From a virus (Duplodnaviria > Caudoviricetes), in the IMG/VR virus record IMGVR_UViG_3300044580_000315, positions 1-47,121 of that record: a stretch of 47,121 nucleotides of DNA, one strand, 5' to 3'. Below, one piece after another: positions 2,999 through 45,467 of the stretch (position 1 is the stretch's first letter; each line of letters opens with the position of its first letter). A program made the translations under genes and the position numbers. The notes under the pieces are model-generated. The model was not told the DNA's origin. It made no database searches and was given only the letters and a program-made list of their open reading frames with translations.

Positions 2999-3237
2999 CA
3001 GTTCCCTTTACTGCCGAGGAAATCCTCTTGTCTCTCAAGGCTCTTGAGCCGCAGCATTTTGGCGTCCTCCTCTCTCCTGAGCAGGAGTGGGTGCTATGGA
3101 CTTCTTATCCTAAGTATAGAAAAATCGATATTGCGAAAGCTTTTGGCCTTAGCAGAACGACAGTACAGCGTCTTTATAAAGAACTTGTCAAATCAGGTGG
3201 GCCTAGAGGCGAAAAGCCCTCTTATATAAAGGAGTAA
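2941..3237 (+). CDS. Small helix-turn-helix protein (start uncertain)
   Basis: KIDIAKAFGLSRTTVQRLYKE HTH pattern. Confidence 0.65.
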   Translation: MEDTYSESTFCGGQGRTTVTVPFTAEEILLSLKALEPQHFGVLLSPEQEWVLWTSYPKYRKIDIAKAFGLSRTTVQRLYKELVKSGGPRGEKPSYIKE

Positions 3238-3240
3238 CTT

Positions 3241-3459
3241 ATGGAAACTAACTCTCTTGTGGAGCACCCGCAGCACTACTGCTACGGCAAAGTGGAGCTT
3301 ATTGATCTTATCGAAAACCTTCCTTTTAGTAGGGGCTGCATAATAAAGTATGTGTATAGAGCTGGCCACAAGGAGAGTGAGCCAGAGCTTAAAGACCTTA
3401 AAAAGGCCTTGTGGTATTTGCAGCGAGAAATTGCCAGACTCGAGAACATAGACAAGTAA
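3241..3459 (+). CDS. DUF3310-type protein (T7 gp1.7 / SaV-like)
   Basis: VEHPQHY...IDLIE...F.RG.IIKYVYRAGHK...DLKKALWYL signature. Confidence 0.8.
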   Translation: METNSLVEHPQHYCYGKVELIDLIENLPFSRGCIIKYVYRAGHKESEPELKDLKKALWYLQREIARLENIDK

Positions 3460-3477
3460 ATCTTCTTGTGGTATGAT
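3449..3477 (+). promoter_or_regulatory. Sigma70-type promoter
   Basis: TAGACA-17nt-TATGAT with TG extension, upstream of the gene at 3509. Confidence 0.5.
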
Positions 3478-3508
3478 CTTAAAAGAGAGGATTAAAGGAG
3501 GCTATCAA

Positions 3509-3691
3509 ATGCCTATCAAGAAGACAGGTTCTTACAGAGGAAAATCCAACAAGCTCGGTTATGGCGGCAGAAGCGCGCAGCTGCGAGACCAAGGTGTTCC
3601 TGAAGGTGTTATAGGCCAGCTCGCCCGCAAAGCACAGGCAGCCCCAGGCCAAAAAAATTACCATGGCGGCAAAAAGAAAGGTAAGAAGTAA
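3509..3691 (+). CDS. Small very basic protein (possibly DNA-binding or virion-associated)
   Basis: AAGGAGG RBS. K/G/R-rich, ends GGKKKGKK. Confidence 0.65.
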   Translation: MPIKKTGSYRGKSNKLGYGGRSAQLRDQGVPEGVIGQLARKAQAAPGQKNYHGGKKKGKK

Positions 3692-4347
3692 TGGCTTACT
3701 TAGATATCTATAAAGGTGGGGCTACTAAGTCAATTGTTCCACTCTCCACTTCAGATATAAGTACTTCGGCATTTCCTTATATCAACAAGTTTTTGAAAGT
3801 GAAAAAAGGAAGTTATTACAATAGCTATACTGCCGTAAAGCATTCTTACAACCACCCTAATCCTTCAGGCTTGAGAGTCCAAGCTGACGGCATAGAGTAT
3901 GACATAATATCGGGATCACCTCTTGTCGATGATGGGGTTTTAGGATCGGCGCCACACTTCGCATGGTACGGCCTTGGAGCAACTTTTGACGTGAATGCTT
4001 ATTATGAGTCTAGAACTGTGATTTACAGTAGCTTGGAGCCTATCAGCAAATTTTACACTTACCACCTTAGCGGACAAACTATGAAGTATAGAATGCAAGT
4101 GCAATTCAAGTTGACTTGTAAAATTGCAACTCATGTTTATGGCTTTGTAAGAATACAGTACACTGACGAGCATGGAGCATTCCGTCAAATAGATTCAGAT
4201 ATTTATGATGCTGGTTGGCCAGCAGCAGCTCAGGGGACAGTAAATTTTTCTGACGTATTTCCGGCAAATAACTATGCGACTGTTCAGATCATAGCGTATG
4301 GAACAATAGCTGGAAGCAACTATGTCCACATCTATAAGCCAACTTAA
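3691..4347 (+). CDS. Hypothetical beta-rich protein, possibly tail-associated
   Basis: 218-aa ORF coupled by TAATG. Tyr/Ser/Gly-rich. Adjacent to a fibre gene. Confidence 0.55.
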   Translation: MAYLDIYKGGATKSIVPLSTSDISTSAFPYINKFLKVKKGSYYNSYTAVKHSYNHPNPSGLRVQADGIEYDIISGSPLVDDGVLGSAPHFAWYGLGATFDVNAYYESRTVIYSSLEPISKFYTYHLSGQTMKYRMQVQFKLTCKIATHVYGFVRIQYTDEHGAFRQIDSDIYDAGWPAAAQGTVNFSDVFPANNYATVQIIAYGTIAGSNYVHIYKPT

Positions 4348-4358
4348 AGGAGATTTTC

Positions 4359-5484: not shown

Positions 5485-6039
5485 ATGCAGGTAAATCTTC
5501 CTAAGAACCTTTTCATTAAGGAAGCAGAAGTCGGTTTTTTCAAAGGAGGCCTCTACGATGGGGCGTATGGCCTTACTCTCACCTTTTCAGGGCAGGATTT
5601 CGACTCTACCGACATTCTTGCAGAGGTTATCTACCCGATAACCAAGTTGCAATTCCCGCAGCGCAAGCTCGTTCGTCTCCAAGGCCTTTTCCCTGTAAAG
5701 AGTCCTTTGATGAAAGTCTTCCTTCAGACCCTCAAGTCGTGGGGGTTTACGATCCACCTTATCGTCGATCACAACCAGTTAGAGCTGGCCTCAGTGCCCC
5801 TCGTCGACTGGCTCATCTTACGCACGACCAAGCCCTTTATTCCCATTGTTTCCAGTGAACTTTGGTATCTGCCTTTATTGCAGGAGAGAGAAGGAGACGA
5901 TGCGGCCCAGGAAGGACTCGTTGACCCAATAATCCCGCAGCCGGAAAAGACTCTCCTGTACCTCGAGAAGAGTGGGTATAGCATGGGCGCCCTGACCAAG
6001 TTCGTGGTGTCCTCTAAATACAATTGGCTGTTGCTGTAG
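5485..6039 (+). CDS. Hypothetical protein resembling a cysteine-less QueE / radical-SAM activase fold
   Basis: Segments in the same order as QueE motifs (see findings). No Cys in the protein. Confidence 0.45.
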   Translation: MQVNLPKNLFIKEAEVGFFKGGLYDGAYGLTLTFSGQDFDSTDILAEVIYPITKLQFPQRKLVRLQGLFPVKSPLMKVFLQTLKSWGFTIHLIVDHNQLELASVPLVDWLILRTTKPFIPIVSSELWYLPLLQEREGDDAAQEGLVDPIIPQPEKTLLYLEKSGYSMGALTKFVVSSKYNWLLL

Positions 6040-6047
6040 GCTCCAGT

Positions 6048-6245
6048 ATGCAAAGAAAGAAAGTGGGCAAGTTCGTCTCCCTTACAGACGAAAAACCTAT
6101 TGCGATCTATCCGAGCCAACGCGCAGCGGCCCTCATTGAAGGGGTATCGCGTCAGGCAATCAATCAGGCCATTCGATCTTTGTTCAAAGTAAATGGCCAC
6201 TACTTCATGGAGCTGCCCGATGACGAGAACAAAGCAATCTTGTAG
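6048..6245 (+). CDS. NUMOD1-like small DNA-binding protein
   Basis: IYPSQRAAALIEGVSRQAINQAIR...NGHYF pattern. Confidence 0.55.
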   Translation: MQRKKVGKFVSLTDEKPIAIYPSQRAAALIEGVSRQAINQAIRSLFKVNGHYFMELPDDENKAIL

Positions 6246-8814
6246 AGTGTGCCCCTATGCAGGCAAGAGACAGGTCAAGTCGATTACACCTGAAAATCCT
6301 TCTTTTATGGTTATTGGAGAGGCCCCAGGTGCAACCGAAGAGGCTCGAGGAGAGCCTTTTGTTGGCGAGTCTGGCCGCTTCCTCAATTGGGCTTTGGGCC
6401 AAGCTGGGGTCTATCGCCCGAGCGTTTGGTTTTCAAATGTCATAAATTGCCGCCCTCCCTCAAACGACATTACCTCGATAGAGTCCCAGGATGCAATATC
6501 TTGCTGCAAGGCAGGCCTTTGGGAAGAGGTTGATGCCGCTTATGACGCCGGTGCTAGGGTAATTCTCGCCCTTGGCAATACGGCGGCTGGGCTCCTCCTC
6601 TCTCCTAAAGAGTCTCTGACAAAGATAAGGGGCTCTGTTTACACAATCAAAACTCCGAAGCATAACGAGATGCTGGTAGTTCCGACCTATCACCCTTCCT
6701 CTATTATGCGGCACCATTGGAAAAGATCAGGTGGTGGTACTGCTGACGACGCTGTGCTGTGGCTCGCGGACATCAAAAAGGCGGTGAGAATAGCCAAAGA
6801 GGGCTGGTCTATCCCTGAAGAGAAGTTTATTTTAACGCCTAAAATAGAAGATGTAAGGAAGTTCTACAAGTTTGCCATTTCGAAAAAGCCGCTCTTGTCG
6901 GTAGATATCGAGACTACTGGCCTTGATCCTACGAGGAATGAGGTCGTAGTAATCGGATTCGCATGGTCAGAAAGTGAAGCTATATCTATTCCTTTTGTAG
7001 AGAAAGGCAGCCCTTACTGGTCTATTCAGGAAGAGGCAGAAGTCTGGAAAATGGTGACGAATGTTCTCGAGACTTGTCCTCAAATATACCAAAACTGTCT
7101 TTTCGACGTGCCTTTCTTGATAAGGTCGAAAGGGATACCGGCGCATCCACTTGCGGAGCTGGTAGTTCATGACACCTTGCTCTTGCACCACACTTTGGCG
7201 CCTGAGCTGCACCACGACTTAGGAACTATTGCCAGTCTTTACGGAAAGACGCCTTACTGGAAAGAAGTTTTTAAGGGAAGAAAAGTAACTATTCATGAGA
7301 TGGATCAGCTCGAAATGAGAGAGTACAATCTAAGGGACTGTATTGTTCCTTATCAGGCAATAACTCCCATGCTGGCCGACATAGAAGAGAGTGGCCTAAT
7401 GCCTTTCTACAAGGCCGAGGTGCAGCCTCTTCTAGCGCCCCTTATTGAAATGAGCGTAAAAGGCATTTCAATAGACGCAACTCGAGTGACTGCCTTTAAG
7501 AAAAGGATAACCTCTGAAGTAAAAACCTTAGAAGAGAAGCTGCGGGAGTTGGGCAATTTGCCACCTGAGTTCAACCTGGGCTCCGAAGACCATGTAAGGT
7601 ATTTCCTTTTCGGTGAAATTCCTACTTCCTTTAAGCATATTCCTGAGTTGGATAAGAAAAGGGCTGGCACCAAGATTTACCAGCAATTGCTCGAGCTAAA
7701 GAATCTCAGGGATAACACAAAGCCGATCTTTCTACTGCCTTCATGGACTCCACCTAAGACAAAAGAAGGAAAAAGCAGGGTCAACAAAGAGGGATTACTG
7801 TCTTTTCAGATACAGCTCAACAACTATTACCAGAACCATGTGAATAAGGAAAACCTTGCGGCCATAGAGAAGCTCCAAGACTGGCTTATTTTATACAACA
7901 AGTTTAGCGCGGCAAGGAAATTATCGACCTCTTTCTCGGATTACAAGGCCCAAGCAGACGGTCGCATCAGGCCGCAGTGGAAAGTAACTGGTACTGTCTC
8001 AGGCAGACTAAGCTGCGAGAAACCGAACCTTATGCAGTGCCCAAAGCCAAAAGACGACCCCGAAGACCCTGCTTCTCAGGTAAGAGCTTTCTTCAAAAGT
8101 AAAGAAGGATGGTCATATGTTTCTTGTGACTACGTTAACCTCGAAGCACAACTCTTAGCTTACGAGACCCTTGATCCCGTCTTAATAGATATCTTTGAAA
8201 GCGGTAAAAACCTCCATGACATCAATACTCGAGATATGTTCAAGATAGATAAGGAAAACTCTCTCTGGTCAGAAGCAAGAAAAGCAGCGAAGATATTCTT
8301 CTTTGGCGGAATAAGCTATGGTGGCGGCGACATCACTATATATAGAAAATGCTATCTTGCAGCACCAAAGCTGAACCTTACTTTTGCCGACTTTACTAAG
8401 GCGAGGAAAAGCTGGTTTGATGCGCATCCGCATTATGTAGCCTGGAAGAAAGCCCTCACGGAAGAAGTAACTCGAGAAAGGCTTGTGAAAACAGAGTTTG
8501 GCCGAATACGGCAGTTTCTCTCGAATGACGAATCTATAGTGAGAGAAGCCCTTGACTTTAAGATTCAGTCTGCTGGAGCCTCCTTAGTTAATAGAGCTAT
8601 GTCGCGCATCTATAAGGAGAAGATGTCGCGCAACATGCAGGCCTTTTTTGTGTTGCAAATCCACGATCAGTTGGTCATGGAGTGCCCTGATAGCGAAGTA
8701 GAGTCAGTGAAAGAAATGATGGTGCGCCAACTAGAAGCTCCCTTTACCTACAAGGGGTTCACGCGCCATATCCCTGTCGACTGCTCAGTAGGAAAATCAC
8801 TCGCGGAGTTATAA
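6220..8814 (+). CDS. polA: DNA polymerase family A with N-terminal family-4 uracil-DNA glycosylase domain and 3'-5' exonuclease
   Basis: UDG motifs CxxCP, GEAPG, PFVGESG, NCRPP, TYHPS. Exonuclease motifs DIETTG, HDT, YNLRD. Polymerase motifs TVSGRLS, DYVNLE, RKAAKIFFFG..YG, QIHD. Start placed at the ATG after GGAG (track start is 6193). Confidence 0.92.
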   Translation: MTRTKQSCRVCPYAGKRQVKSITPENPSFMVIGEAPGATEEARGEPFVGESGRFLNWALGQAGVYRPSVWFSNVINCRPPSNDITSIESQDAISCCKAGLWEEVDAAYDAGARVILALGNTAAGLLLSPKESLTKIRGSVYTIKTPKHNEMLVVPTYHPSSIMRHHWKRSGGGTADDAVLWLADIKKAVRIAKEGWSIPEEKFILTPKIEDVRKFYKFAISKKPLLSVDIETTGLDPTRNEVVVIGFAWSESEAISIPFVEKGSPYWSIQEEAEVWKMVTNVLETCPQIYQNCLFDVPFLIRSKGIPAHPLAELVVHDTLLLHHTLAPELHHDLGTIASLYGKTPYWKEVFKGRKVTIHEMDQLEMREYNLRDCIVPYQAITPMLADIEESGLMPFYKAEVQPLLAPLIEMSVKGISIDATRVTAFKKRITSEVKTLEEKLRELGNLPPEFNLGSEDHVRYFLFGEIPTSFKHIPELDKKRAGTKIYQQLLELKNLRDNTKPIFLLPSWTPPKTKEGKSRVNKEGLLSFQIQLNNYYQNHVNKENLAAIEKLQDWLILYNKFSAARKLSTSFSDYKAQADGRIRPQWKVTGTVSGRLSCEKPNLMQCPKPKDDPEDPASQVRAFFKSKEGWSYVSCDYVNLEAQLLAYETLDPVLIDIFESGKNLHDINTRDMFKIDKENSLWSEARKAAKIFFFGGISYGGGDITIYRKCYLAAPKLNLTFADFTKARKSWFDAHPHYVAWKKALTEEVTRERLVKTEFGRIRQFLSNDESIVREALDFKIQSAGASLVNRAMSRIYKEKMSRNMQAFFVLQIHDQLVMECPDSEVESVKEMMVRQLEAPFTYKGFTRHIPVDCSVGKSLAEL

Positions 8815-10341
8815 ATGGCTAACTTATGGGAAACATTCAAAATCCCGCTAGAGGTGTCTCCTGAAGAGGAATACCGACCTGAAATCGAAGACAAGGAACC
8901 TAAGAAGCGCCGCAGGAGAGAGAAGGAGACGAAAAAAGACGTCAAGGAAGAAACGGTGCTCATTACTCAAAATGAGGCCGAGATTCTAGCAATGCTAGAA
9001 AGTCAACCTGAGGCATTTGTAGAGCCACTTGTAAAGCCTTATGCACAAGACCCTGCGGATTTCCTAGTGCCGAGAGAGAGCTTTGTGTCTGACTTTGTAA
9101 ATATGGGCCGAGGCACTGAGGCGCCAACACTGTTTCTAATGTGGGGCGCATTGTGGACTTTATCTACGGCTCTCGGCAGAAATGCCTGGATTAAGTGGTT
9201 TCCAAAAGGGCTGTGGCCGAATCTCTATGTCATATTTATCGCGCCGGCGGGTATATGCAGGAAGAGCTTCTCTATTGACTTAGGAAAGCAAATTCTCGAG
9301 GAGTCGGAGAAGTACTGGAGAGATAACATGGAAGCCTTTCAAAATAGCTACAGGTTCATTACCTCGAAAAGCTCGCCTGGAGGTCTCTACATGATGCTCA
9401 AGCCGGAGCAGCATATCTTTATAGACCAAGAGCACAACGCGATTGTACGCAAAGAGAGGGGCTCGAAGGTAGTTATGGCCATTTCTGAGCTAGCGACCTT
9501 TATCTCAAAGCAGCAGTATAATACCGGCCTTGTGAATAACCTTACCGACCTTTATGACTGCAAGGACAAAGACTCTGAGATCACTCGAGACAGAGGCGTT
9601 GAAGAGCTAGAGAATGTATATGTTACTCTTGCTGGAGCAATTACTCCAACAGGAATGGAAGAATCGATACCTAAAGAGGCTCTTTCAGGCGGCTTCGTCT
9701 CGAGGTCAATATTGGTGTATCAGGACTTGCCCACTAAGATATACCCTATGCCGATGCACTTTGACGGCTTTCCCACAATACCTGACTTGGGCAAAAAGCT
9801 GGCCTGGATAGCCCAAGAAAACAGGGGAGAGTATTACTTCACTCCAGAGGCAGAAGTTGCCTTTACACAGTGGTATGTCGAGTGGAAAACGAGGATCATA
9901 ACAGGTGATGCTGGTCTCCGAGAAGACGAGAACAGGCGCGACATTTTAGTACGCAAAACTGCCATGCTCATGAGGGCAGCAGAGTATCGGCGAGGCGGCG
10001 ATATCACCTTGCAAAACTTCAAAGATGCAGAGAACTTGCTCGACTACACTTACAAGGTGAGTGCCAAAATGATGCTTAATATGGGCGGCAGCGAGTTCAC
10101 TAAAAACTTGGCCAAGATAAAAGCCTATATACAAAAGAAGGAAGTTCTTACTAGAAAACAGCTTGTGACGAGGTATTCGAGTTCTATCCCTTCAGTGGAG
10201 ATCACAAGGCTTGTGAATCAGCTTATAGATCAGGGCGAAATAGTGGCAGAGGTGGCTGGCAAAACTATCTATCATTCTATAGGTAACTCGAAAGAGGTTT
10301 ACCACTATACTTCGATAGAGGAATTCTATGAAAAACGGTAA
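8815..10341 (+). CDS. DUF3987/YfjI-type P-loop ATPase, probable replicative helicase with C-terminal winged helix
   Basis: PNLYVIFIAPAGICRKS (Walker A-like), ISELATF, LTDLYD, TLAGAITP and GGFVSR motifs. Directly downstream of the polymerase. Confidence 0.7.
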   Translation: MANLWETFKIPLEVSPEEEYRPEIEDKEPKKRRRREKETKKDVKEETVLITQNEAEILAMLESQPEAFVEPLVKPYAQDPADFLVPRESFVSDFVNMGRGTEAPTLFLMWGALWTLSTALGRNAWIKWFPKGLWPNLYVIFIAPAGICRKSFSIDLGKQILEESEKYWRDNMEAFQNSYRFITSKSSPGGLYMMLKPEQHIFIDQEHNAIVRKERGSKVVMAISELATFISKQQYNTGLVNNLTDLYDCKDKDSEITRDRGVEELENVYVTLAGAITPTGMEESIPKEALSGGFVSRSILVYQDLPTKIYPMPMHFDGFPTIPDLGKKLAWIAQENRGEYYFTPEAEVAFTQWYVEWKTRIITGDAGLREDENRRDILVRKTAMLMRAAEYRRGGDITLQNFKDAENLLDYTYKVSAKMMLNMGGSEFTKNLAKIKAYIQKKEVLTRKQLVTRYSSSIPSVEITRLVNQLIDQGEIVAEVAGKTIYHSIGNSKEVYHYTSIEEFYEKR

Positions 10342-10930
10342 GTGCGGCAGACTCTCTTGCATTGCTGAGGGAGTCTTTACTTTAAGGCAGCTGAGAGAAG
10401 CCTATAAGAAATGTGGCTCTGTCCGCGCAACTGCAGAATATTTAGGTGTAAGTCCTACCACAGTAAAGAAGTATCTCAAAGGAGGCCTATTGCCTCGAGG
10501 CAGGCCCATCCAGCCTTACTTGTGGAAAACTGCTATTGCGAGCGAAGTGGGCCAGTGGTTTGAGCTGCACAAAGAAGAAAGGCTGCCTTCTCATCCTAAA
10601 GACATAGCCGAGTTGTCAGGTTTTACTGTGAATCAGGTAAGGCGCTTTTTATACTCAAGACGAAAAGCAGCGGAGTCTTATCTTAAAACCTTGCCGGAAC
10701 CTACCTCAAAAGTAATAATTTTCAGAGACATAGAAGGGAACCAAGTGCCTTCTTCCTTCATAAAAGCCTTTACTACCGAGGTAAAGCTTTCTTCCTTAGA
10801 TGTCACCTTAAATGTGGTGCTCACTGTCGGTGGGCAGCGAGTAATAAAAATCCCCTTCAGAGAGTATGAAGCTGCTCTGAAAGGGACATCTACTTCGATA
10901 CCTACAATAGGCATTAAAACGGCAAGATGA
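10328..10930 (+). CDS. HTH DNA-binding protein (two HTH-like segments)
   Basis: SVRATAEYLGVSPTTVKKYL and PKDIAELSGFTVNQVRRFL. Confidence 0.7.
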   Translation: MKNGKCGRLSCIAEGVFTLRQLREAYKKCGSVRATAEYLGVSPTTVKKYLKGGLLPRGRPIQPYLWKTAIASEVGQWFELHKEERLPSHPKDIAELSGFTVNQVRRFLYSRRKAAESYLKTLPEPTSKVIIFRDIEGNQVPSSFIKAFTTEVKLSSLDVTLNVVLTVGGQRVIKIPFREYEAALKGTSTSIPTIGIKTAR

Positions 10931-13900
10931 AATGATCCCATGGCCCAGGCGATCTGTGCGCCCCTAAAGCGTTATAGAAAGCACCCCAGCCGTCACCCTT
11001 AGACAATGCGTCCCACGCATCTATCATAGAGTTAACCTGAAGACCGAAGGGGGCCAGCAGCCTTGGATAATTCAAGGTGAGCTGGCCATTTTTCTTTGCG
11101 AGAGGGCCAAAGTTGAGGGCCAACTGATTCACTGTCATTTTACCAACTGTCGTTGTCTGGTCAGTATTGCCCGCAAAGAATTGCGCTATCGAGGTAAACA
11201 AGGGGCCACCATGAAATCTAAAGGGATCAAGAATAGAGAATCCATTGTAGTCGACGCCAACTGCGTAAAAGGCATTGCGCAGCAGCGCAGTGATAGCAAC
11301 AAGCCTCGTGAAAGTAGCGAGGCCTTGGGCCATATCAGGCGCGTGCAGCATCTGATTGTACAGCTGTATCTGATTCACAGAATAAGTGCCGAACTGCCCG
11401 AAAAGCCTGCCTATGGTGCCCCTGAACATTCTCGACTTCATGGAGTACTCATAGTCGAACATCAGCCTGCCAATAGCTTCAGTTTGGGCCAAGTCCCTTG
11501 CCGCTTCCAGTTGCCCTTTTCCCAGCAGCCCTTCTATACTATCAAGGGCTTCCTTCGACATAAAGCTGCTGTAGTGAGTGTACTTTGCAAAGTCCTTAAA
11601 GTCCTTGACAATGCCTTTCTGCCACTTTTCAAGGCCCTCGTCGAACATTTGTGCAGTTACTTTAGCCGTCGCGCCTCTGGTAAGATACTCGGAATTTTGC
11701 TGCCCTCGCATTGCCAGATCGAGAAGATTCTTCCTCACACTCTGATATTCACCAGTAATATTGGAGAAAACTTTCTCGGAGATAATGCCCTTTTCAAACA
11801 TTACTCTCAGCTCTGCATCGGTAAGATCGGTATAAGCCTGAAGTGCTCTACTGCCGAAAATAGCGTAAGTATTCGCAAATTGTGACGAGTTATAAATGAT
11901 CCTCATAGGCCTGAATCCGAGGGTAGAGGCAGCCACTTGCTGCTGCAAGTCGTTAAGTATATCGTCGGTGATAACTTTGGTAGCTCTATTCGCAAAAGCT
12001 CTTCCTACTGCGGTGTCGCCAAACTTCTCGGAAGCCCAGCTAAAAGCCTCAGAAATTCCCTTGGAAAGATTCAATGAAATAGTTCGTAGTTCTTGGCCTG
12101 TTCTGTCTACAGTGCCTCCCAAAATAGCTCCATTAAGGGAAAGCAGCGAGTTATATTGCGAAGGAGTAACCTTATCTTTGAGGCTTTCTACAAAATCTTT
12201 CAACTCTTTAGAAAGTTTTCCTAGATGCAGCTCTCTGTAGCCTTTTTCTACATAGAACTCGGCACTACGGAGTGCATTTCTCTCGACAAACATGTTAACT
12301 ACATCATCGAGCCTACTATTCTTCGCGAAGAATTTTAGTTCTCTCATGTTCTCATATGAGGTGCCAAATGCCTTTTGCGCAAAGTCTACGGCACCTTCAG
12401 TCTCCTTCATTATAGAGGCCAATACTTCGGGATTTTTGAGGTCTCTTAACCTGGGGCCATAGTTTTCCATGAATCCAATGTAGTTGATGCCAAAGAGTTG
12501 TCCTGTAGTGTCATAGAAATTCCTTAGAGCCCACATTCTCCTTGCATCACCACTTGTCCACTCCTTGCCCATCGATTTAGCTACATCGGCCCATTGCTCC
12601 GGCTTATAAAACAGCATTTCCTGATAAAGCTCGCTCACTGCTTCTGGAACTATCTTGCCGTTGTCTCCAGTAAAAATGGCTCTTAGCGCAGTCTTGGCTT
12701 TCAAGATGTCCGCAGCAGCTGCCTTATTGTGCAGGGTAACCCTTCGGCCCATGTTGGCTATCTCAGGTTGATGTAAAAGCTGTGCCAACTTGTCTAGTGC
12801 ACCTTGAGTCGGCCTTCCGATCATCTCCACGTCACTCAAAAACGGCTTGAAAGGATAGTTGAACTGCTTATTGTAAGGGAATGGGCTGACTCCTCCCTCT
12901 CCTAACACCTGGGCCTCGATAGTTGCCCGCAGCTCGTCAGAAAACTCCTTATCGACAAAAGGAGTAAGCTCTCGCCATGTCATGTCAGGAATGCTTGCCA
13001 TGTAATTCTGGAGTTTCTCTAAGCTGTTAAAAGCTATCTCTTTAGAGGGACTTTTTAATACTGCAAGGCCATTTTCATTGAAAGTGAGTCTATAGCCTTT
13101 CCTTGCCGCAGAAAGGGAAAGCCGTGTGGTTTTATCCGCAGCTTCTGTAAGAAATTGCCGTGCCTGCTTCGAGTTGGTAAAGGTTTTCTTGAAGCCAGTG
13201 GAAGGTATTTCGACAAGGATTTCGCCGCCCCTTTTATTCGTCGTCATTTTCCACTTCATTCCGTCACGATAAGTCCCTGAAACTTCACTGCCAGGAGGCA
13301 CTACACTCTTGAAATCTACAGAGTCAGTCCAGTTTCTGTTGACGTAATCCATAATGGACTCGACAGGGCCTGAAATAACAGTCTTGCCGACCATTAACTT
13401 GTCGCCCTCGAGAATGATATCTGGCATCATGGTGTCAGGAAACTTAATGCCGCCAAATGGAGCCCACTGCATTAGCTCACTTATAGACCGCGACTCTTGC
13501 ACAATCTTGCCAAAAGCGTCTCTTGCCACATAGAGCTTTACTCCATCACCTGTAAGAGTCAAATCTACACTATACCCTGTAGTGTTCTTAAAGGCAGCTA
13601 AGGCAGTTGCGTCATCTATAAAGTCGTTCTCAATCAAATGGCCCCAAATGATCTTATTGGCATTATCAACAGAAATGTTATTAAGAGCCCTCCCGTCAGG
13701 AAATTTTATATCTACAAGGTTGCTGCCTTTCTCAATAACCTCACCGCCTCCATAAACCCCAAAAACAGCATTAAGAGCCCTCACATCTTGGGAGAGAGGG
13801 GAGACCGGCAAGCCCTGCCTTTCAAGTAGAGTGTCGAAAAAAGCCCGAGTTTGCGGCTTAGTAATAGTGGAAGGCAACGTCATGTTGCCTTTAATGGTAT

Positions 13901-15471: not shown

Positions 15472-18400
15472 TCAATACTTGTTGACCAAATCTTCTATGA
15501 CCTTGCCATTTGGCCCCTGGTTGGAACTTCTCGCCGCAGCAGCTTCCTGTTCTGCCGGTGTATAGAACGACACTCCACCAGACTCGGGAGTCTTTCCAAA
15601 GAGCTTGCCCAACCAGCCCACTGCCTTATCGGGATTTTTCTGAGCCATAGCAATCCACTTGGCAAGCCCATCAAATCCACCTGCTACTGCCATTTGCTGT
15701 AAAAGAGCGTTGTAAGTATTAATTCCTTGGTAAGCTCCAGAAGTTTCCATATACTTGTCAAACTCCTGTTTCGTTTTTATATCGTTCCAATCTACTTTCC
15801 CACCTTTGGAAGAAATAAAGCCTGCTATTGCGTCTTTTCTAAGTGTAGCTGAAGTCGCACTTGCGTCCTCGAGGAACTTCGACACAGCATTGCTCAAGTC
15901 CGCGCTCATCTTAGCGGAGGCAGTCATTTGCTGTGCAATAGCTAACTGAGTATTGGCAATAGCTTCCTTTTCTCTTATCTGCAACTCAGCTTTGGAGAGC
16001 ATTCTTGTCTCTTTATTCGCAACCATAGTTGCATAGTTCTCGCCAAACGCAAAGAAAGACTGCTCAATCGGCATGTTCTGCACATAATCCGTGAGCTTCT
16101 TAATCATCTCAGCTCTGCCCTGCGAGTCAAGGTTATGCCACTCTTGTCGCATCCAGCTGCCGGCCACCGCCGCATCCCTATAGGCCTGAGACTTCTCGGC
16201 AAAGCTTTTAGTGCTACCTGTGAAAAACTGTCTTAGATTCTCAAAAACGCCAACAGCCTTTTCCTGGGAAACCTGCGGGCCAGTGTAAACTCCAGTGCTC
16301 TTCCCGTAGGGAGCATTCTGCGCTTTCTTGTCTATAACAATAGCGTTAAGGTCAGGCAATTCACCAAGTAGTTGCGATGCAGCATCTTTTGAAGTTTGAT
16401 CTGCATTAGGATCATTCATTGCTGCCGCAGCCTGCTGCACTTTCACAGGTTTCTGCTTACTTAGCTCCGAGACAGTTTTCATAGTCTGAGTAACAATATC
16501 GGCTTTCTCCTTATCTGTTTTTGCGCTACTAATCTTCTGCAGCATACTTTTTACTGCGGGGTAGTAAGGAGAATCTGAAGGCAGAGTTTCGATATTTGCG
16601 ACAGAGACACCTATTGTTTTGGCCAATTGTCCAAGATTAGCACTGAAAGCCAGATTGCTATTGACATCAGAACCTTGAGGAGTAAGAAGAGTATTTGAGG
16701 GAGCATTTTTTACATCCAGTGCAGTCTTGAATGCATCTCCCTTATCCACACCCTGAGCCCAAAGGATTTTAATCATCTCTGCAGCTTTGGGGTCTTTTGC
16801 CGCATCGCTGAAAGTAAAATACTTTGTCCCTAGCTGCTTATTGATGCTGCTGAGTTGTGTCTGTAAATACATCGCAGTTCCCTGCAAAGCTCCATTCATT
16901 TGGCCTTTTTCCATAACCCCATCTAAAGAAAGAGCCATGCTATCTGCACTTATTATTCCACTTGAAGGGCTTTTGTCCGCGACACTAATTCCTCTTGCCT
17001 TAAGTCCTTGCTCAAATGCCTGATAACTGGTATCGCCAGCCGCGCTTGACTGCCCTCCAATACTAATAAACATTTTGTCGAAGCCAATAGGAGCATCCTG
17101 AAAATTTTTCCAGCCTTCGGGAGGCGGAGCACCAATAGGCAAGCTAAAGTTCTGAATGATTATTTGGCCTTGGCCTTGCGCCTGCTCAAAATTTGTCGTA
17201 GGTCTCCAGAATACTCTATCAACCACTTTTCCTTTCATGGCAGGGTCTTTGCTTGCAATAGCAAACATGACCTTATCCAGCGGCTTCAAGTCTCCTCTTT
17301 CAGCCAACTTCAAAGCAAACTTAACTCTCGGGTCATCTTTGTTTTGAGCTACATAGCTAAGGTCAATGCCTGAAGGAAGAGTCGCATTCTTCTGACTCCA
17401 TCCCTCTTCAGGAGTAATCTCCCTGCCGCTGATAGCCTTATAGACTTCAGCAATCTGAGCACCTACATTCAACTCAGCTGAGGAGAGAGGAGGAGACGCC
17501 GGTGCGCCGCTCGGGGTAACTTGAGAGGCCTGAGTAGCAGTTTGAGGAGCTACACTTCCAATCACTTTATTTCTATCAGAAAATTGCTGCTCAGCCTGTT
17601 GTCTCTGAAGCATCTGCTGCGAGGCGCTTTCCCACGGCCTTACTTGAGTATATTGTTGTAAATTAGATTGTTGCTGTTGCGGAACTATTTGAGGCTGGAC
17701 TTGCTGTGGGTAAGGAGCCCCTGCATTGCCTTGAGCCTGAGCTTGTGCTCGAGCCTGTTGTGCTGGAGAAGGCCCTTGCGCCATTACACCCTGGCCCGGA
17801 ACTTGCTGCTGTTTTTGGCTTGAAAGCTGCTGGCCAATTCGTGCCATAGCCGCCAACTGAGTTGCCAGGTCTTTACTCAAAGTAATGGTACCGTCCCCAT
17901 TGTCTCTTGCCTGCTGTTGAGGAGAGAGAGAGGAGCCTGCTGCCTGCGGCTGATTTTCTTGAGGAGTTGCTTGAGGTATAACTTGAGGCTGGGCTTGAAT
18001 ATTGCCTTGGCCCTGGCTTTGGGCCTGAGAAACAACCTGTCCGCCAATTCGTGCGAGCGCACCAATCTGCTGGAAAAGATCAGTGCCGAGGGTCACCGTG
18101 CCGTTGCCGTTGTCGACAAGCGGCTGGCCTTGCCCTTGGCTAGGCGCACCTTGTGGCTGAGGAGCGGTATAGCCTGCGCCTTCCATCGGCCTTCCGCCAA
18201 TACCAATCTGCCCAGGGCCTTGCTGAATAGCACCTGGGGCTGTTCTGGCTGGGGCTCCTCCTTCTCTCCTAACGCCAGTGCTTCCGCCTGCTTTACCAGT
18301 GATGTCAGACTCAATACCTGGCCACCAGTAATTAGGGAGGCCGTTACTACTACCGCCACTACCAGTGTTGTCTGAGCCTGTGGGCTTGGGAGGAGTAGAC

Positions 18401-21964: not shown

Positions 21965-22582
21965 TTAAGCCTCAAGCCAAATATCGCCGTCAGCTGGAGA
22001 TGAAGGCCTTGAAGTCCTTATCTTCAATGCAGTTGTTGCAGTAGTCGCAGTAGTCGCTGAACTTGCACTCCCTGCTGAAGAGGCGTAATTTACCGACTGA
22101 GAACCTATATTACTTGAAGTAATCGCAGAAGAAGCAGGCTGGTAATAAGAACCGTGGTTGCCGTCGAGCTTATCCGCATTAAGGTCAGTAAGGGGCTGAG
22201 TCGCAAGGCCTACCAAAGCCGCAAGGACATCTGATCCAGTTGTAGGAATTTTTACCCAAGTAGTTCCATTGTGGTAGTAAAGGTCTCCGGTAGGCACATC
22301 GCTACCGTCAACTACTATCCAAATCCTTCCTTTAAGGCCAATATCAGCCGCATCATCAGGCAGCGAAGAAGCGTCAGGAGAGGAGGAGGAGACGAAAACT
22401 CGCGCTGAGCCCTGTTTGTGCATACCTTGCCGAGTAAGCTCTGAAGTGCTGGTGCCAAAAAGGTGCTCTTTCTTAACTCGAGCCCTTACCTCAACACGAG
22501 TCGATCTGATTTCGTCGTCCATAGAGCCCAAAGACTCGGAGCCCGCAGGCTGGCTCTCATAAAGTGATGTCCAGTTCGCCAT
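21965..22582 (-). CDS. Tail-associated (fibre/needle-like) protein
   Basis: YYHNGTTW, LNADKLDG.H and P..PADGDIW motifs, which are common in phage tail fibres. Confidence 0.65.
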   Translation of the reverse strand: MANWTSLYESQPAGSESLGSMDDEIRSTRVEVRARVKKEHLFGTSTSELTRQGMHKQGSARVFVSSSSPDASSLPDDAADIGLKGRIWIVVDGSDVPTGDLYYHNGTTWVKIPTTGSDVLAALVGLATQPLTDLNADKLDGNHGSYYQPASSAITSSNIGSQSVNYASSAGSASSATTATTATTALKIRTSRPSSPADGDIWLEA

Positions 22583-26054: not shown

Positions 26055-26854
26055 TTAATCCTCCCTTGCTCTCTCAAATGCTGGTAATAAACGTCATAAT
26101 CGAGGCCAATTTTGTCAGCCTCGGACTTAACCCACTGCGGAACCACTGTTCTGGAGCCACTTTTCTGTGGGTTAACGCTTCTCTGCTCTCCCACAGGCGT
26201 TCTCACTGCCACTTCAGGTGCTTTCTTGTCAGGATCAATGCCATATTGCTTCAGCACTTCCGCAACTTTCAGTGCAACCTGCTCCTGCAAGATGTCATCT
26301 GTATGCCTTGCCCTCACTCTATCCAGAGCTGTCTGGTAAACCCTTGGATTTTGGGCCTTTTCAGCCAGCGACATTTGCGAAACTTCTCTTTCCACCTCTT
26401 CCTGGTACTTCGAGTACACACTTTTTGTCGAAGGATCAGTAAGCGCCAGCTCTTTTGACAGAGTAGTATGTGAGTTAGCAAGCAGTTGCGCGAGGCCAAT
26501 CGCGTTTTCTCTCGCTATCTCTTCGGTTGCCTTCACAGGGTCTTCAAGGTAGAGGTTCCTAAGCCTTTGAGCCCTTTCTTCAGGGCTCTCTATCTGAGGA
26601 GAGGGAGGAGCCGCAGCCTCGGGTTTTTCCCTGGGAGCATTCTGCTGGAACCCTTTCATGAAACCTTCGCTTTGGGCCAGCTTTTCCTGCATTGCCCGCA
26701 GCTGCTCTTTCAGCTCGTCCTTGTCCTGAGGGGCATTTTGCTGCTGCTGTTGCAGCTCGAGAGCCTCAGGGCTACCTTCGAGAACAAACTCCTCAGCCGG
26801 AGCACTTTCCTGCTGCCCTTCCTGGGGTGCAGAATCAAGAATCGATTGCGCCAT
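26051..26854 (-). CDS. Capsid scaffolding protein
   Basis: Acidic, E/Q-rich and helical. Located between portal and capsid. Confidence 0.65.
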   Translation of the reverse strand: MAQSILDSAPQEGQQESAPAEEFVLEGSPEALELQQQQQNAPQDKDELKEQLRAMQEKLAQSEGFMKGFQQNAPREKPEAAAPPSPQIESPEERAQRLRNLYLEDPVKATEEIARENAIGLAQLLANSHTTLSKELALTDPSTKSVYSKYQEEVEREVSQMSLAEKAQNPRVYQTALDRVRARHTDDILQEQVALKVAEVLKQYGIDPDKKAPEVAVRTPVGEQRSVNPQKSGSRTVVPQWVKSEADKIGLDYDVYYQHLREQGRIK

Positions 26855-30720: not shown

Positions 30721-31064
30721 TCTTCACCTTCCTTAGTTTCATCTTGAGGCTCCTTAGAAACAAGCTTCTGTAAGACGCCCATGCCTCTTACCGCGCTCTG
30801 AATGCCATCCGAGAAAGAGAAGATGAGGGTATTGTTGGGCGAGGCACCTTTGGGGAGAGGAGGAGGAGACGCTTTGCCGATAGCTTGCATTATTTTGTCG
30901 GCGGCGTCTTTTTTGACTTTAGGGTCGACTTTGGAGTCGGTTAAGATGTCAATATAGGTTGAGATAGCTAGCCGCTCGAGGTAGCTCTTCATAGCTTCAA
31001 AAGAGCCTTCAGTAAACTCCTGTGCAGTAGAATCGTCCGACTGGTCGATATTTTTTTCGCTCAT
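30717..31064 (-). CDS. Probable terminase small subunit
   Basis: Overlaps the TerL start. Helical AI..Y.DIL...KVKKDAADKIM pattern. Confidence 0.6.
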   Translation of the reverse strand: MSEKNIDQSDDSTAQEFTEGSFEAMKSYLERLAISTYIDILTDSKVDPKVKKDAADKIMQAIGKASPPPLPKGASPNNTLIFSFSDGIQSAVRGMGVLQKLVSKEPQDETKEGEE

Positions 31065-31194
31065 AGGGCAATTTCTCCTTTACTCAATGATAAAGGGTGA
31101 AGTAATATATGTCTAGGAGAGAGGAGGAGACCGCGACAAAGGTAGTGGGAAAGTAAGGACGCCTTGCGTCTTTCACTGCCTAAGCAGCCCTTCA

Positions 31195-32365: not shown

Positions 32366-32764
32366 ATGGGTGTTATGCAAATCAACTTTGAAAGCAAAAT
32401 CGCGCTTTCTCGGCACCAAATACAAGAAATGCTCAACACGTTGCTTGTGGGATGCTTCGTAGACGTCAATACAGTAAATAGTCCTAGCGCGGACAACGGC
32501 ACTACATTCACTGCCCAAATCATTTATACCTTGCCGAACGGCTACATTCTCTCCAGGCTCTTCAGCCTTTCTCTAGTGCTTGGTCAAGACTGCATTGCCT
32601 ATTTCGACAGCGGCTCGTCGGGCGTGGCAAAAGGCTTCGTAGGCCTAAAGCCATATGCCAAATTCGACGACGATCTTTTCATTGAGTTTTTCTCAGGCAA
32701 ACCGTTGTCCGAGGCCGAGAAGACCCAAAATCAGGGAGAGAGGAGGAGCCCTCTTCAGCTTTAA
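32366..32764 (+). CDS. Hypothetical protein
   Basis: AGGAAGG RBS, 132 aa, followed by a terminator. Confidence 0.6.
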   Translation: MGVMQINFESKIALSRHQIQEMLNTLLVGCFVDVNTVNSPSADNGTTFTAQIIYTLPNGYILSRLFSLSLVLGQDCIAYFDSGSSGVAKGFVGLKPYAKFDDDLFIEFFSGKPLSEAEKTQNQGERRSPLQL

Positions 32765-32970: not shown

Positions 32971-33734
32971 TTACTTAAGAAAACTTAAGCATTTCTAGCT
33001 TAGAGCTTCAGGCCTAAAACATATCAACTAGCAAGGGGCGTGCCAAAAGTAAAAAAATCGTTCGCCCAAGTTAATTTTGACCCATTTCAACTATTGAAAC
33101 GCTTTAATTCCTTATAGTATAAAGACAAAAGTCAAATTTTGGGACACTGGGCTGTCCACGATGCCATATGTCATTAATGATGATTTGTGAAATATAGGGG
33201 GTATCGGGCCAGATACGAGAGGCAAGGCGGCAGGTTAAGTGTTTGGCGGGCAATAAATTAAGGCTGGGCGGGGAAAGTGGATAGTTTGTTGTCTATTTAC
33301 TTATATTTATATTTATATATTTATATTACCATCTATTATATATATTATATATTATATATAGTAAACTCCGCATATTGTGTCAAAATGACACACTCCCCAC
33401 ATTACACCACTTTTCACTAACTGCCCCTCGCCCCCATTTTCTCTAATTCCTTACCCCGCCGCCACTTACCTCCCTTTCGCCCCTCTAACTGCCCCCTATT
33501 ACCCCTATATTTTACTACTTTTCATTAATGGAACCCCCCATCGCAGACAGCCCAGTGGCCCAACTTTCGAAATAACTCCTTACCTTACCGCAACTTAGAC
33601 CGTTTCAACTGTTGAAATGGGACAATATTAAACTCCCCGCCCCTTTCCTCTTATTTTGGCACACTTCTTGCTAGCCAAAAGCTGGGCTCTCCTCCTCTCT
33701 CCTAAGTTACTTTCACTTAACAAATGTTAAGTAA
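32971..33734. repeat. Large degenerate inverted repeat around an AT-rich core (axis ~33351); candidate replication origin or packaging/terminus site
   Basis: Five paired blocks whose coordinates sum to 66702 (see findings). G-rich inner left arm, C-rich inner right arm, TA tract at 33294-33365. Confidence 0.85.
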
Positions 33735-36849: not shown

Positions 36850-36860
36850 AAGTCTTTTCT

Positions 36861-36931: not shown

Positions 36932-36991
36932 AGAGGTTAATAAACCTCCTGACGCTTGCGCGTTAGCAATTTTTCTATAAGGAGCTTCATT

Positions 36992-38245: not shown

Positions 38246-38301
38246 TTAGGAGAGAGGAGGCGGCCAAACCTTTCGGCGGCGGTTTCCTCCTTCTCTCCTA
38301 A
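38246..38301. repeat. Intergenic hairpin formed by two inverted copies of the dispersed polypurine motif
   Basis: TTAGGAGAGAGGAGG...AAACC-loop-GGTTT-CCTCCTTCTCTCCTAA. Confidence 0.85.
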
Positions 38302-42895: not shown

Positions 42896-43110
42896 AATTT
42901 TTAGGATCGCTTCTCTGTGATTTCTGCATGCAAGAAGTAAAAGACACTTCTAAAGTCGGCAAGCTCACTTTTGTGACTCCAACCCACACTTACAGCTGGC
43001 TTGATATATGCCCTGACTGCACTCCCCACATTCTTTCTGCCTTGCGCATTGAGGGCAGGCGCCTTACAGAGGAGAGAAGGAGGAGCGAAGATGCTGCCGA
43101 GCAACTTTAG
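42892..43110 (+). CDS. Small Zn-finger protein
   Basis: AAGGAG RBS. CDFC...DICPDC. Confidence 0.65.
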   Translation: MKFLGSLLCDFCMQEVKDTSKVGKLTFVTPTHTYSWLDICPDCTPHILSALRIEGRRLTEERRRSEDAAEQL

Positions 43111-43858
43111 GCTAAGTTACTCTTCAGTCATAGAATTTCTTACTTGTCAGCGCAAGTGGTACTACAACCATCTTATAGGCTTGAAGCCCGTAGAAGGCAA
43201 AAGTGCTGCCTTAGTGCTCGGTTCCTTGTGGCATGAGCTGCTCGAAAGTGGCGGCAACAAGTGGCCGGAAGACGAGACTATCAAGGACAAGTTTGAGAAA
43301 GTGTATCCCATGTGGAAAGAGAAGTTTGACGCTCTTGAGCTGAAAATTCTTTCCTCTGAGATGTGGCTTGAGAAATCTTTCTGCGGCCTAACTTTTGTGG
43401 GAAAAGCTGACGGCCTTGTTGAAGACAGCGCGGGCAGGGTTCACTTGCTAGAGCACAAAAGTACTTCGGCAGCGCTGAACTTTACTATGCAGAGCCTTGA
43501 AGATTCGGATCAGCCGACCACTTACAAATGGCTTTACGATAAGCCGGTTGAGGGTATTGTGGTAACAGCGGCTTCTTTTGGCGCGATACCTTCAGTTGAG
43601 ATGGGCTTCTTGTACCGCAATAGCGACGACATAAAGGCCCTAGAAAAAGGCCTTGAGTCTGTGGTAAGCCAGATGCTGCCGCTTCTAAAAGACTCGCTGC
43701 TCTTCAAAAAGGAGGAAAAATATCAAGAATTCCCGCGAAATGGCAGCGCATGTGGCATGTATGGAGGCTGCCCTTACAGGGAGCTATGTCGACTGGGGCC
43801 AAAAAGAATGGTAGATAGTGGAAATTTCTACTTGACATCTGAGATGGAAGAGGAGTAA
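43091..43858 (+). CDS. PD-(D/E)xK exonuclease, Cas4/RecB-like with four Fe-S-type cysteines
   Basis: LSYS...F.TCQRK, G..WH, GKADG...LLEHKS, Q...Y and C....GCPY..LC. Confidence 0.85.
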   Translation: MLPSNFRLSYSSVIEFLTCQRKWYYNHLIGLKPVEGKSAALVLGSLWHELLESGGNKWPEDETIKDKFEKVYPMWKEKFDALELKILSSEMWLEKSFCGLTFVGKADGLVEDSAGRVHLLEHKSTSAALNFTMQSLEDSDQPTTYKWLYDKPVEGIVVTAASFGAIPSVEMGFLYRNSDDIKALEKGLESVVSQMLPLLKDSLLFKKEEKYQEFPRNGSACGMYGGCPYRELCRLGPKRMVDSGNFYLTSEMEEE

Positions 43859-43861
43859 ATT

Positions 43862-44623
43862 ATGGGAATGGTAACAATAAAACCTGTGGGCTACGAAGAC
43901 CTGCTCGACGACTACACAAGCGGATTCGACGGGACTTTTGCTTGTCTTTTCTACGGCTTTCCCGGCAGCGGCAAAACGCACCTCGCCGCTTCTTTCCCAA
44001 GCCCTTTCTTTATCGACACGGATCGAGGCATGAGGTCGATAAAAACTTCAGAGAAAATCCCTCGAATGCAGCTTGCTAAAGCTTCAAAGCCTTACACTGC
44101 TGTCTTGAGTGTGCTGCTTGATGCTTTGAATGACAGGGGGCCGTGGGCTCCTGGTGGTAAGTTTGCCAATGTGCAGACCATAGTGATCGACACGATAACT
44201 TCACTTGTCGATGATTTCATGCTGCCGGAAGTTATGATAGAGGGTAAAAAAGATGTCCTTGTCGATAAGGCGGGCTACGACGAATATGGCAAGATAAAAT
44301 CTCGGCTTAATACTCTAGCTTCGCTGCTCAAAGACCTTTCAGCAAAAAAATATATTGTAGTGAATGCTCTTGTTGAGGAAGAGAAGGACGAGAATACCGG
44401 TGAGCTTACCGGCAAACCTCTCATTACAGGAAAATACCGCGACAAAGCAATGGCTGACTTCGACGAAGCTTACTACCTTTACAGCCAAACCTCTATGGGC
44501 ACGACAAAGTATTTTCTTCAAGCGCAACCATACAAGTGGTTCAGAGCCAAATCAAGGCTTCTATCGGTAAAATCGATGGAAAGTCCTTCCTTTGAGAAAC
44601 TGCTGCCACTGTTGGGAAAATAA
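43862..44623 (+). CDS. Sak4-like AAA ATPase (single-strand annealing recombinase family)
   Basis: YGFPGSGKT, FIDTDRG, TIVIDTIT and AKSR motifs. Flanked by the exonuclease and SSB-like genes. Confidence 0.8.
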   Translation: MGMVTIKPVGYEDLLDDYTSGFDGTFACLFYGFPGSGKTHLAASFPSPFFIDTDRGMRSIKTSEKIPRMQLAKASKPYTAVLSVLLDALNDRGPWAPGGKFANVQTIVIDTITSLVDDFMLPEVMIEGKKDVLVDKAGYDEYGKIKSRLNTLASLLKDLSAKKYIVVNALVEEEKDENTGELTGKPLITGKYRDKAMADFDEAYYLYSQTSMGTTKYFLQAQPYKWFRAKSRLLSVKSMESPSFEKLLPLLGK

Positions 44624-44660
44624 AAGGGTAATCGTTCCCTACAAAAACGAGGAGGAAATT

Positions 44661-45071
44661 ATGGTTATCAACGTTCAAGGGCTGTCGAGCGCACCTGTCA
44701 ATCAGGCCCTCGATAAAGGTCGGTATCAGGTTCTCATTCAGGGCGCGGAGGCCATTGTCTCGGCGCAGAAGGGAACCCCTGGGGTCAAGCTCGAAGTACA
44801 GGTCACAGATGGCCCCGAGCAGGAAGGCGGTTACTCGCCAGTCGGCAAGAAGATTTTCCCTGTGATCTACTTCCCCGAGGCCGAGGGCCAGGGCAGAACT
44901 ATCGGCCTTTCGCGGCTGAAAAAGCTCTGCATTGCGGCAGGAGTGAGTCCCGACGATAATCTCGACTTGTCGGAGCTTGTGGGAAAAGAGGTCGTGGTAA
45001 GAACGACCCAGCGGGAATACAACGGCGAGCTTCAGGTAGAAGTGGTCGACTATTACCCTGTGAAACTGTAA
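44661..45071 (+). CDS. DUF669-type ssDNA-binding protein
   Basis: GRYQVLI..AE...S.KG.P...L...LK.LC.A.G...LVGK.V...Y.G pattern. GGAGG RBS. Confidence 0.75.
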   Translation: MVINVQGLSSAPVNQALDKGRYQVLIQGAEAIVSAQKGTPGVKLEVQVTDGPEQEGGYSPVGKKIFPVIYFPEAEGQGRTIGLSRLKKLCIAAGVSPDDNLDLSELVGKEVVVRTTQREYNGELQVEVVDYYPVKL

Positions 45072-45141
45072 TGGTTTTCACAGCAATGGTCATTTATGTT
45101 CTTGGATGGGTTCTATTCCACGGCATAAGCGACTGAATTGC

Positions 45142-45177
45142 AAGGCTGCACCTTAATAAGGTGTGGCCTTTTATTTT
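45142..45177 (+). terminator. Intrinsic terminator
   Basis: AAGGCTGCACCTT/AAGGTGTGGCCTT stem followed by TTATTTT. Confidence 0.7.
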
Positions 45178-45188
45178 AGGAGACAACA

Positions 45189-45467
45189 ATGAGAGAATAC
45201 TTACAGTCAATTTATTACGACATGATTCGAGAGCAGCAAAATAGAGAGCCTTATAACCCTTGGCTTGCCTTAGCCCGCGCAGTGATCCAAGAAGCCTATG
45301 AGGACCTTACGCCGCCGAAAAGCACCGGCAACCCGAAAGCCCTTATTGCCGACGCAGTAGACTTTTTCTTAGGCTGGCGCTTTGATGTATGGTCTGACGC
45401 TGCCTACTTGCCCCTCGAAGAAAGAGCCCGGCTAAAAGCTCTGGCCTCCTCCTTCTCTCCTAAATGA
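45189..45467 (+). CDS. Hypothetical protein
   Basis: AGGAG RBS. LARAVIQEAYED...A..FF...F.VW pattern. Confidence 0.65.
   Translation: MREYLQSIYYDMIREQQNREPYNPWLALARAVIQEAYEDLTPPKSTGNPKALIADAVDFFLGWRFDVWSDAAYLPLEERARLKALASSFSPK

Follow-up and report, generated by a model that had tools for sequence, protein, structure and literature searches.

Several tailed phages scatter short sequence words over their genomes, and four described systems come closest to the one reported here. As far as the accessible parts of the reports describe them, the nick motifs of the tf/Rembedalsseter/LUZ24 group (WACTRTGAC), of phiKMV-like phages and of T5 are asymmetric, phage-specific words with a spelling typical of the group, present in at least about a dozen copies per 45 kb and lying mostly in genes irrespective of their expression (PMC3517423, PMC11780129). 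The stoperators of Cluster A mycobacteriophages are 20–30 asymmetric sites of 13–14 bases, spelled by lineage and accompanied by a phage protein of about 190–200 amino acids (aa) with two helix-turn-helix (HTH) domains (PMC9283540, PMC6550527). The 17-bp repeats of Cluster O mycobacteriophages occur in more than 30 dispersed copies, a third of them in genes (PMC4351075), in phages that encode a DUF3987-family helicase (Corndog, PMC4889955), and the active priming sites of T7 are strand-specific and about 1–6 kb apart across its 40-kb podovirus genome (PMC12839067). Resemblances to each of these are found in IMGVR_UViG_3300044580_000315, a virus record of 47,121 bases that was analyzed at its full length (the window; G000 among the records compared) and represents a complete, podovirus-like phage genome of 47 kb. 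It carries 22 copies of an asymmetric polypurine word that is under selection as a DNA signal, is spaced on each strand separately and is spelled anew from lineage to lineage. Tentatively, and with somewhat less than an even chance of being right, we read the word as marking fixed sites where the phage replication module starts or restarts each strand.

The original prediction, made from the letters of the window, had listed 22 copies of the motif, and all of them were found 1–5 bases from where they had been placed, 14 on the plus strand and eight on the minus strand. The pattern used for counting was written after the copies had been seen; it returns 22 copies against a mean of 1.4 and a maximum of 6 in 60 protein-preserving synonymous shuffles, and the 18 copies in genes compare with a mean of 1.2 and a maximum of 6 in 1000 protein-preserving shuffles of the window. 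A pattern-free count of 12-mers concurs, as CCTCCTCTCTCC has eight dispersed copies against 0.02 expected. Of the proposed consensus the polypurine core stands, and can be written as RGGAGAG, a purine linker and GGAG (14–18 bases, with length variants of ±1). The leading TT is not a general feature: a TTA start is seen in 6/8 minus-strand and 1/14 plus-strand copies, and a continuation with AC in 8/14 plus-strand and 0/8 minus-strand copies. Such strand-specific spelling was present in none of six other records. The exact 17-mer AGGAGAGAGGAGGAGMC has four copies in the window and occurs in six other IMG/VR stretches, all unrelated to it. One other candidate carrier, L156, was set aside, its eight loose matches being confined to coding sequence of low complexity on a single strand.

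Eighteen of the 22 copies lie within genes, mostly as had been proposed. From the left, these are 3065..3078 (minus strand; antisense inside the small HTH open reading frame (ORF) 2995-3237), 5882..5896 (plus; in an insertion of a QueE-like gene, encoding QEREGD, with a gap in 3/3 homologs), 6592..6606 (minus; antisense in the UDG domain of PolA) and 8914..8928 (plus; where the helicase N-terminus is variable, sharing 21 identical bases with the copy at 5882). Two copies fall in the gene for a putative ejection protein of 1513 aa (12890..12903, minus, sense; 13790..13803, plus, antisense) and three in that for a protein of 1130 aa (17481..17495 and 17920..17935, plus, antisense; 18255..18270, minus, sense). 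A copy with one inserted C (20515..20530, plus, antisense) occupies a 3-residue insertion of a 634-aa tail protein, and at 22376..22391 (plus, antisense) SSSSP stands in place of the S-E/D-T-x-P of homologs with no change of length. The next copies are built on a conserved WRGxE peptide (25812..25826, minus, sense), lie antisense in a scaffold-like gene (26597..26610, plus), or occupy a 9-residue insertion of TerL (29586..29603, plus, antisense). The remaining copies in genes are antisense in gene 30717-31064 (30853..30868, plus), antisense in the small ORF 31061-31249 (31115..31129, plus), at the end of ORF 32366-32764 (32734..32748, plus; kept but respelled in strain L080) and antisense at the end of ORF 45189-45467 (45446..45461, minus). 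The four intergenic copies comprise one in a large non-coding region (33687..33703, minus), the left and right arms of an inverted pair 35 bases apart (38246..38260, plus; 38283..38301, minus), and one just upstream of the ATG at 43091 of a nuclease gene (43070..43085, plus), the sole copy positioned like a ribosome-binding site. In the large non-coding region there is also a near-palindromic 22-mer, ACCGTTTCAACTATTGAAATGG, in three copies (32945-32966, 33081-33102 and 33599-33620), a candidate operator or origin element.

That the motif is conserved as nucleotides rather than as protein was borne out. The copies at 5880/8912 and at 17480/29588 are identical pairs, and identical copies are read in different frames. 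Among four-fold degenerate sites of the G006 lineage, 2/50 inside the word have changed, compared with 1421/5931 elsewhere (p = 0.0002); the corresponding changes within the word were 0/24 in the G002 lineage and 0/19 in that of the window, neither being significant alone. The word is, therefore, under selection as a DNA signal. Its placement in proteins was examined by mapping 71 in-gene sites on core-gene alignments, where 64 had at least two homologs: 26 of these 64 lie in mostly gapped columns, compared with 6.5% of 2182 random windows. The signal is so strong that insertions have been forced into terminase, portal and polymerase. The expectation that motif-encoded peptides are loop insertions holds for the TerL and QueE-like copies, while others overwrite residues or use pre-adapted codons (e.g., WRGEE). 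Site turnover is also visible between strains, one G006 site having been gained or lost as a block substitution between strains that are 94% identical. In two other strains (X1 and X2), 17 substitutions are packed into the 48 bases (17496-17543) that directly follow a word on its 3' side, and a strain-difference tract of L080 ends at the 32734 copy. Polarized hypermutation 3' of the word was considered and rejected, as there was no general 5'/3' asymmetry and no synonymous halo in two lineages.

The spelling seen in the window was absent from all five close relatives tested, and each of these had a word of its own. Overall, such a word of 11–15 bases was detected in 5/9 long records and in most close fragments: CAGGCCGGACGAGC in G001 (18 copies), CCCCCCCGTCAG in G006 (19), AAATGCCCCCCAAA in G014 (23), AGGACCCCCGAGC in the G002 lineage (14 in 24 kb), CCCCCCCAGGAGCC in L004 (eight) and CCCTCCCCCAA in the distant G017 (14). 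Variants of the G014 word are present in G005, L003, L026, L027, L028 and L029, and the word of L022 (CAGACCGAACGAGC, three copies) is a two-base respelling of that of its sister G001. Seven or more natural spellings are known from the clade, some members having near-invariant 14-mers. The distribution of the words agrees with the trees of capsid, TerL and portal (the last made by a quick method), and the G014-type word marks a supported clade. Positions of the words are mostly non-homologous between lineages. The three complete relatives carry 18–23 sites each, and density is held at one word per 1.7–2.8 kb in 7/7 word-bearing records with unrelated spellings; BK063670.1, which has the G006 sequence, was not counted as an independent strain. 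The word is phage-specific: the phage contig of G014 holds 21 exact copies of its word, and the rest of its 3.7-Mb bin, which may not be that of the host, holds none. As separate observations, the G006 word is similar to CCCCCGTAG; G015 (L138-L140) has CCTGAGGGCA at 98, 12187, 12583, 28310 and 33514 and in the terminal repeat, all on the plus strand, possibly a weak one-strand word; and L148 (Desulfofustis phage LS06-2018-MD01) has TATGTCCCAA / CCAATTTGGGAC in 5–8 dispersed copies on both strands, by its look a palindromic operator family.

Orientation is independent of the direction of transcription. Among 125 sites in eight records, 41 are sense, 57 antisense and 27 intergenic (window, 6 sense and 12 antisense), and although 10/13 copies between 10.9 and 33.3 kb do lie on the plus strand, as had been pointed out, this count does not amount to an orientation rule. 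Both strands carry words in 7/7 word-bearing records, with plus to minus ratios of 14:8 in the window and 6:12, 12:7 and 12:11 in the other complete genomes. What is regular is the spacing on each strand. When strand labels were shuffled at fixed positions, the observed arrangement had p = 0.012 in the window, 0.05 in G001, 0.48 in G006 and 0.009 in G014 (combined, 0.0004), and three further linear records gave a combined p of 0.004. Per-strand gaps are also more even than under random placement (Fisher p = 0.0003 for the eight strands together and 0.018 when the best one is left out), whereas spacing with the strands pooled is not unusual (Fisher p = 0.14). Mean gaps per strand are 3.4–6.9 kb, and the window's minus strand has eight gaps of 3.5–7.9 kb with a coefficient of variation of 0.25. 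Close pairs on opposite strands are not avoided: copies 35–70 bases apart occur in the window (38246-38301, an intergenic inverted repeat), in G006 (26479/26541) and in G014 (8484/8554). The word is polar and spaced on each strand separately. A rule of convergent close pairs was tried and dropped, being significant in only one of four genomes (G001, p = 0.013). At 26430-26620 of G006 (L041), compared with 1-250 of G007 (L043), a hairpin beside an inverted word pair is swapped between strains for a different one, whose UNCG-type loop also differs, and a structured RNA may therefore lie in that place.

The replication operon of the window specifies the QueE-like protein, a UDG-3'exo-PolA fusion polymerase (6217..8814, plus strand; PHROG, Pfam and NCBIfam scans), a DUF3987 protein (8815..10341, plus) and a 200-aa HTH protein (10328..10930, plus). 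The absence of an evident primase, claimed from the sequence, was upheld by the same scans, which find only DUF3987. The PHROG label of this protein is 'primase', yet it holds the helicase domain alone; its 23 homologs are of 454–560 aa, and a longer version fused to another domain was not encountered among them. Signatures of archaeo-eukaryotic primases or RNA polymerases were not detected in nine records, where the sole TOPRIM-like string lies in a portal gene. DUF3987 proteins are superfamily 6 helicases that mostly have a primase as partner (PMC4889955), and unwinding in the 5' to 3' direction is described for one of them (PMC11724360), according to the available sections of these papers. 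The former places phage 119X, a distant relative by its DUF3987 helicase, among primase-less viruses that may prime non-canonically, and states as an open question how strands are started in phages that have PolA and this helicase and lack a primase.

A genome-wide, cis-acting DNA signal, as originally proposed, is supported; it is conserved at the nucleotide level, is often placed in loop insertions and belongs to a genome that has no primase. Among the roles suggested for it, priming or loading sites fit best because of the even spacing on each strand. A polar, per-strand, gene-independent, phage-specific and co-evolving set is what sites for starting strands predict. In such a scheme a phage factor would read the word with its polarity, and each strand would need a start of its own within some maximum distance, as with priming sites. 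The module would consist of PolA, the DUF3987 helicase and possibly the two-HTH protein, which might bind the duplex site and load the helicase or a priming activity, the primer coming from host DnaG or from PolA itself. Sites would be gained in loops, at termini or on pre-adapted codons that can accommodate the word, and existing ones would be lost as the specificity of the reader drifts, so that the whole set becomes respelled between lineages. All steps beyond 'polar, per-strand, selected' are inferred. An RNA guide or primer matching the word was sought and discarded: Rfam and ARAGORN return only a tRNA-Gln in the window, with no word inside it, G001 and G006 have no tRNA, and no master copy of the word was located.

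The candidate reader is encoded directly after the helicase and has the arrangement HTH-PRGRP-HTH followed by a C-terminal beta domain (pLDDT 70, pTM 0.51; 18 homologs). We take it to resemble the bipartite domains of the paired/Tc1 type. Structure comparison (VIA-align) gave a best Z of 4.3, for the N-terminal HTH only; Foldseek with the HTH model had no match at E ≤ 0.001, and matches in the Atlas stayed under 0.9. Helix 1 of the HTH (SPTTVKKYL) is the same in 10/10 proteins of one subclade, whose overall identity is 45%; helix 2 is as variable as the rest. The lineages that share helix 1 and have a known word (G000, G001 and, via L154, G002) also share the word ends A-G-x-N6-GAG, and in G006 and G014 both helix 1 and the word are different, a comparison of five word-HTH pairs that is confounded by kinship. 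From these sequences, the two-HTH protein possibly reads the word. The presence of the two-HTH gene does not track the word, because G015, G016 and G018 have the protein without a strong word and G017 shows the reverse. As an aside, the same Gly-Gly codons in its C-terminal domain host two unrelated words (L040:526 in G006; L085:8554 in G014).

Several results weigh against strand starts as the function of the word, or against the two-HTH protein as its reader. Besides the three records with the protein and no strong word, G017 has a word and, in the same slot, only a non-alignable HTH gene. No strong word was detected in 4/9 long records (G010, G015, G016 and G018) or any in the close fragments G011 and L054, L052 having only a candidate 8-mer in five copies, although these absences are weak since the motif finders are insensitive to degenerate words and once missed the real one of G017. 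A comparable word was present in none of six named distant phages, including the primase-less PaP2, so a primase-less module does not require it; likewise, no 11-mer exceeded four dispersed copies in any of 32 distant helicase loci, and single-sequence locus searches with PolA and helicase queries gave no matches. No trinucleotide of the T7 or DnaG type is common to the word ends across lineages, hairpins are not in excess at the word in three of four genomes, some strands have gaps of up to 10–15 kb, and evenness per strand is absent from G006 (p = 0.48). A wider claim would be that a primase-less podovirus family programs its own strand starts, with the two-HTH protein reading a word of about 14 bases that recurs on each strand at intervals of a few kb, essential genes included, and with the reader and some 20 sites respelled together in each lineage. 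We regard this as rather doubtful, with perhaps a minor share of the probability; if true, the spacing logic of the strands would amount to a level of genome organization that is general among phages and so far undescribed.

Two other explanations are improbable but survive best. Under the first, virion DNA would be nicked in a programmed way at the words, as at the motifs of tf/Rembedalsseter, phiKMV-like phages and T5, except that here both strands carry the sites. Known nick motifs are likewise asymmetric and spelled by lineage, number 8–14 per 45 kb, and are 88% in genes regardless of expression (PMC11780129, PMC3517423); yet in the parts of these reports available, all lie on one strand and their spread is uneven (the latter in PMC11780129), and the window, G006 and G014 have opposite-strand copies 35–70 bases apart, where cutting at both would sever the molecule. 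The second, also improbable, is a Chi-like polar signal for recombination by the phage's nuclease, Sak4 and SSB (or for some other directional translocase), feeding recombination-dependent replication. The word is indeed polar, on both strands and spaced per strand, the three genes are conserved in the clade, and some strain-difference tracts begin or end at a word (17496-17543 in X1/X2; L080 at 32734). Against this, synonymous changes beside the word are not in excess in two lineages and no general 5'/3' asymmetry was seen. Chi sites have 5–8 bases, and the word is about twice as long.

Still less probable is that the words are stoperator-like sites at which the two-HTH protein blocks or tunes transcription genome-wide. 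This analogy had been raised at the outset, and it does hold for site size and number and for the candidate protein: 22 sites and 200 aa, beside a monomeric two-HTH repressor of about 190 aa in Cluster A, which has an HTH and a Stoperator domain and binds the sites (PMC6550527, PMC9283540). It does not hold for orientation, which ignores transcription, or for location (98/125 sites in genes). PHROG and Pfam scans found no integrase or partition gene in the window, per-strand spacing is not predicted, and the two-HTH protein has no sequence match to the Cluster A repressor, the fit of its model to 7tz1 being that of a generic HTH (42 residues, Z 4.1, root-mean-square deviation 2.5). Selfish copying by microhomology recombination, of a sequence with no function of its own, is very unlikely. 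Sites often lie in insertions, one in G006 changed as a block, two G014 pairs share 11–13 further 3' bases (p = 0.003) and window pairs share rare spellings; however, flank sharing is clearly significant in only 1/7 records, and purifying selection at synonymous sites, per-strand spacing and constant density need selection. The suggested Shine-Dalgarno (SD) or anti-SD-like RNA elements are almost certainly wrong: the window's spelling holds AGGAG twice and the 43070 copy ends five bases before a start codon, but relatives use words that are not SD-like (CAGGCCGGACGAGC, CCCCCCCGTCAG, AAATGCCCCCCAAA) and orientation is independent of the mRNA strand, which rules them out. A packaging, ejection or DNA-organizing role takes up the remaining probability and found no support.

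Outside the replication operon, the structural genes of the window include an SU10-type portal and adaptor, capsid, TerL and two very large putative ejection proteins. The QueE-like protein (5485..6039, plus strand; structure match) has a radical-SAM fold (Atlas TM 0.62–0.67), lacks the cysteine motif of the Fe-S site and directly precedes PolA in 6/9 long records; from its modelled fold it is possible that it acts as an inactive accessory subunit. The genes for a PD-(D/E)XK nuclease, a Sak4-like annealase and an SSB-like protein (43091..45071, plus), which bear on the recombination alternative, are kept across the clade. The single tRNA gene, tRNA-Gln(TTG), is at 36860-36932. The 66-bp terminal repeats of the record are coding, and the record is circularly cut inside a repeat-containing gene, since this gene runs across both ends (45920-47121 plus 1-290). 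It encodes 22-residue repeats, presumably of leucine-rich type, with no match in Pfam. A 61-aa basic protein (3506-3691), for which no family match was found, shows 82–96% identity in G001, G006 and G007, compared with 40–55% for neighboring core genes. Regarding the host, genes for an M15 peptidase and GroES point to a bacterium, as judged from gene content; the relative BK063670.1 lists Methanomicrobiales, and the G014 contig is in a Dissulfurispiraceae bin.

The closest described families each share much with the word, and it lacks a defining feature of every one of them: the orientation of stoperators, the strand of nick motifs, the primase and core of T7, and the symmetry of Cluster O repeats. 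Chi, uptake sequences and FtsK-orienting polar sequences (KOPS) are genome-wide signals of hosts and abundant in the host chromosome. Nick motifs, so far as the accessible text describes them, are 9-base words on one strand and unevenly spread, while those here have 11–18 bases, occupy both strands with spacing kept per strand, and form close opposite pairs. Cluster A stoperators, in the parts of the reports available (PMC9283540, PMC6550527), belong to temperate phages, are oriented with transcription and are located at promoters or in short gaps between genes, unlike the words of the window, and the two-HTH gene here sits in a replication operon. Cluster O repeats, in the available text on them (PMC4351075), are non-oriented palindromes whose density is higher at one end and whose sequence does not vary among members, whereas all words found here are asymmetric, with no dyad symmetry, and respelled. 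The spacing of T7 priming sites is similar to the mean per-strand gaps of 3.4–6.9 kb, but these sites are a pentanucleotide with a weak flank read by a phage primase (PMC12839067, available portion), in contrast to a long, near-invariant word in phages that encode no primase; when the T7 template core 5'-(G/T)2GTC-3' was looked for, GAC followed the word in only 8/22 window copies and was absent from the G014 and G017 words. A search of the full-text literature found no description of such a word, most subscription papers being outside that search. To these families the present case adds a whole set of about 20 sites that change spelling together, a primase-less clade with many spellings, word-free relatives that serve as controls and a named candidate reader, and the seven or more natural spellings, with five word-HTH pairs, make both reader and function testable.

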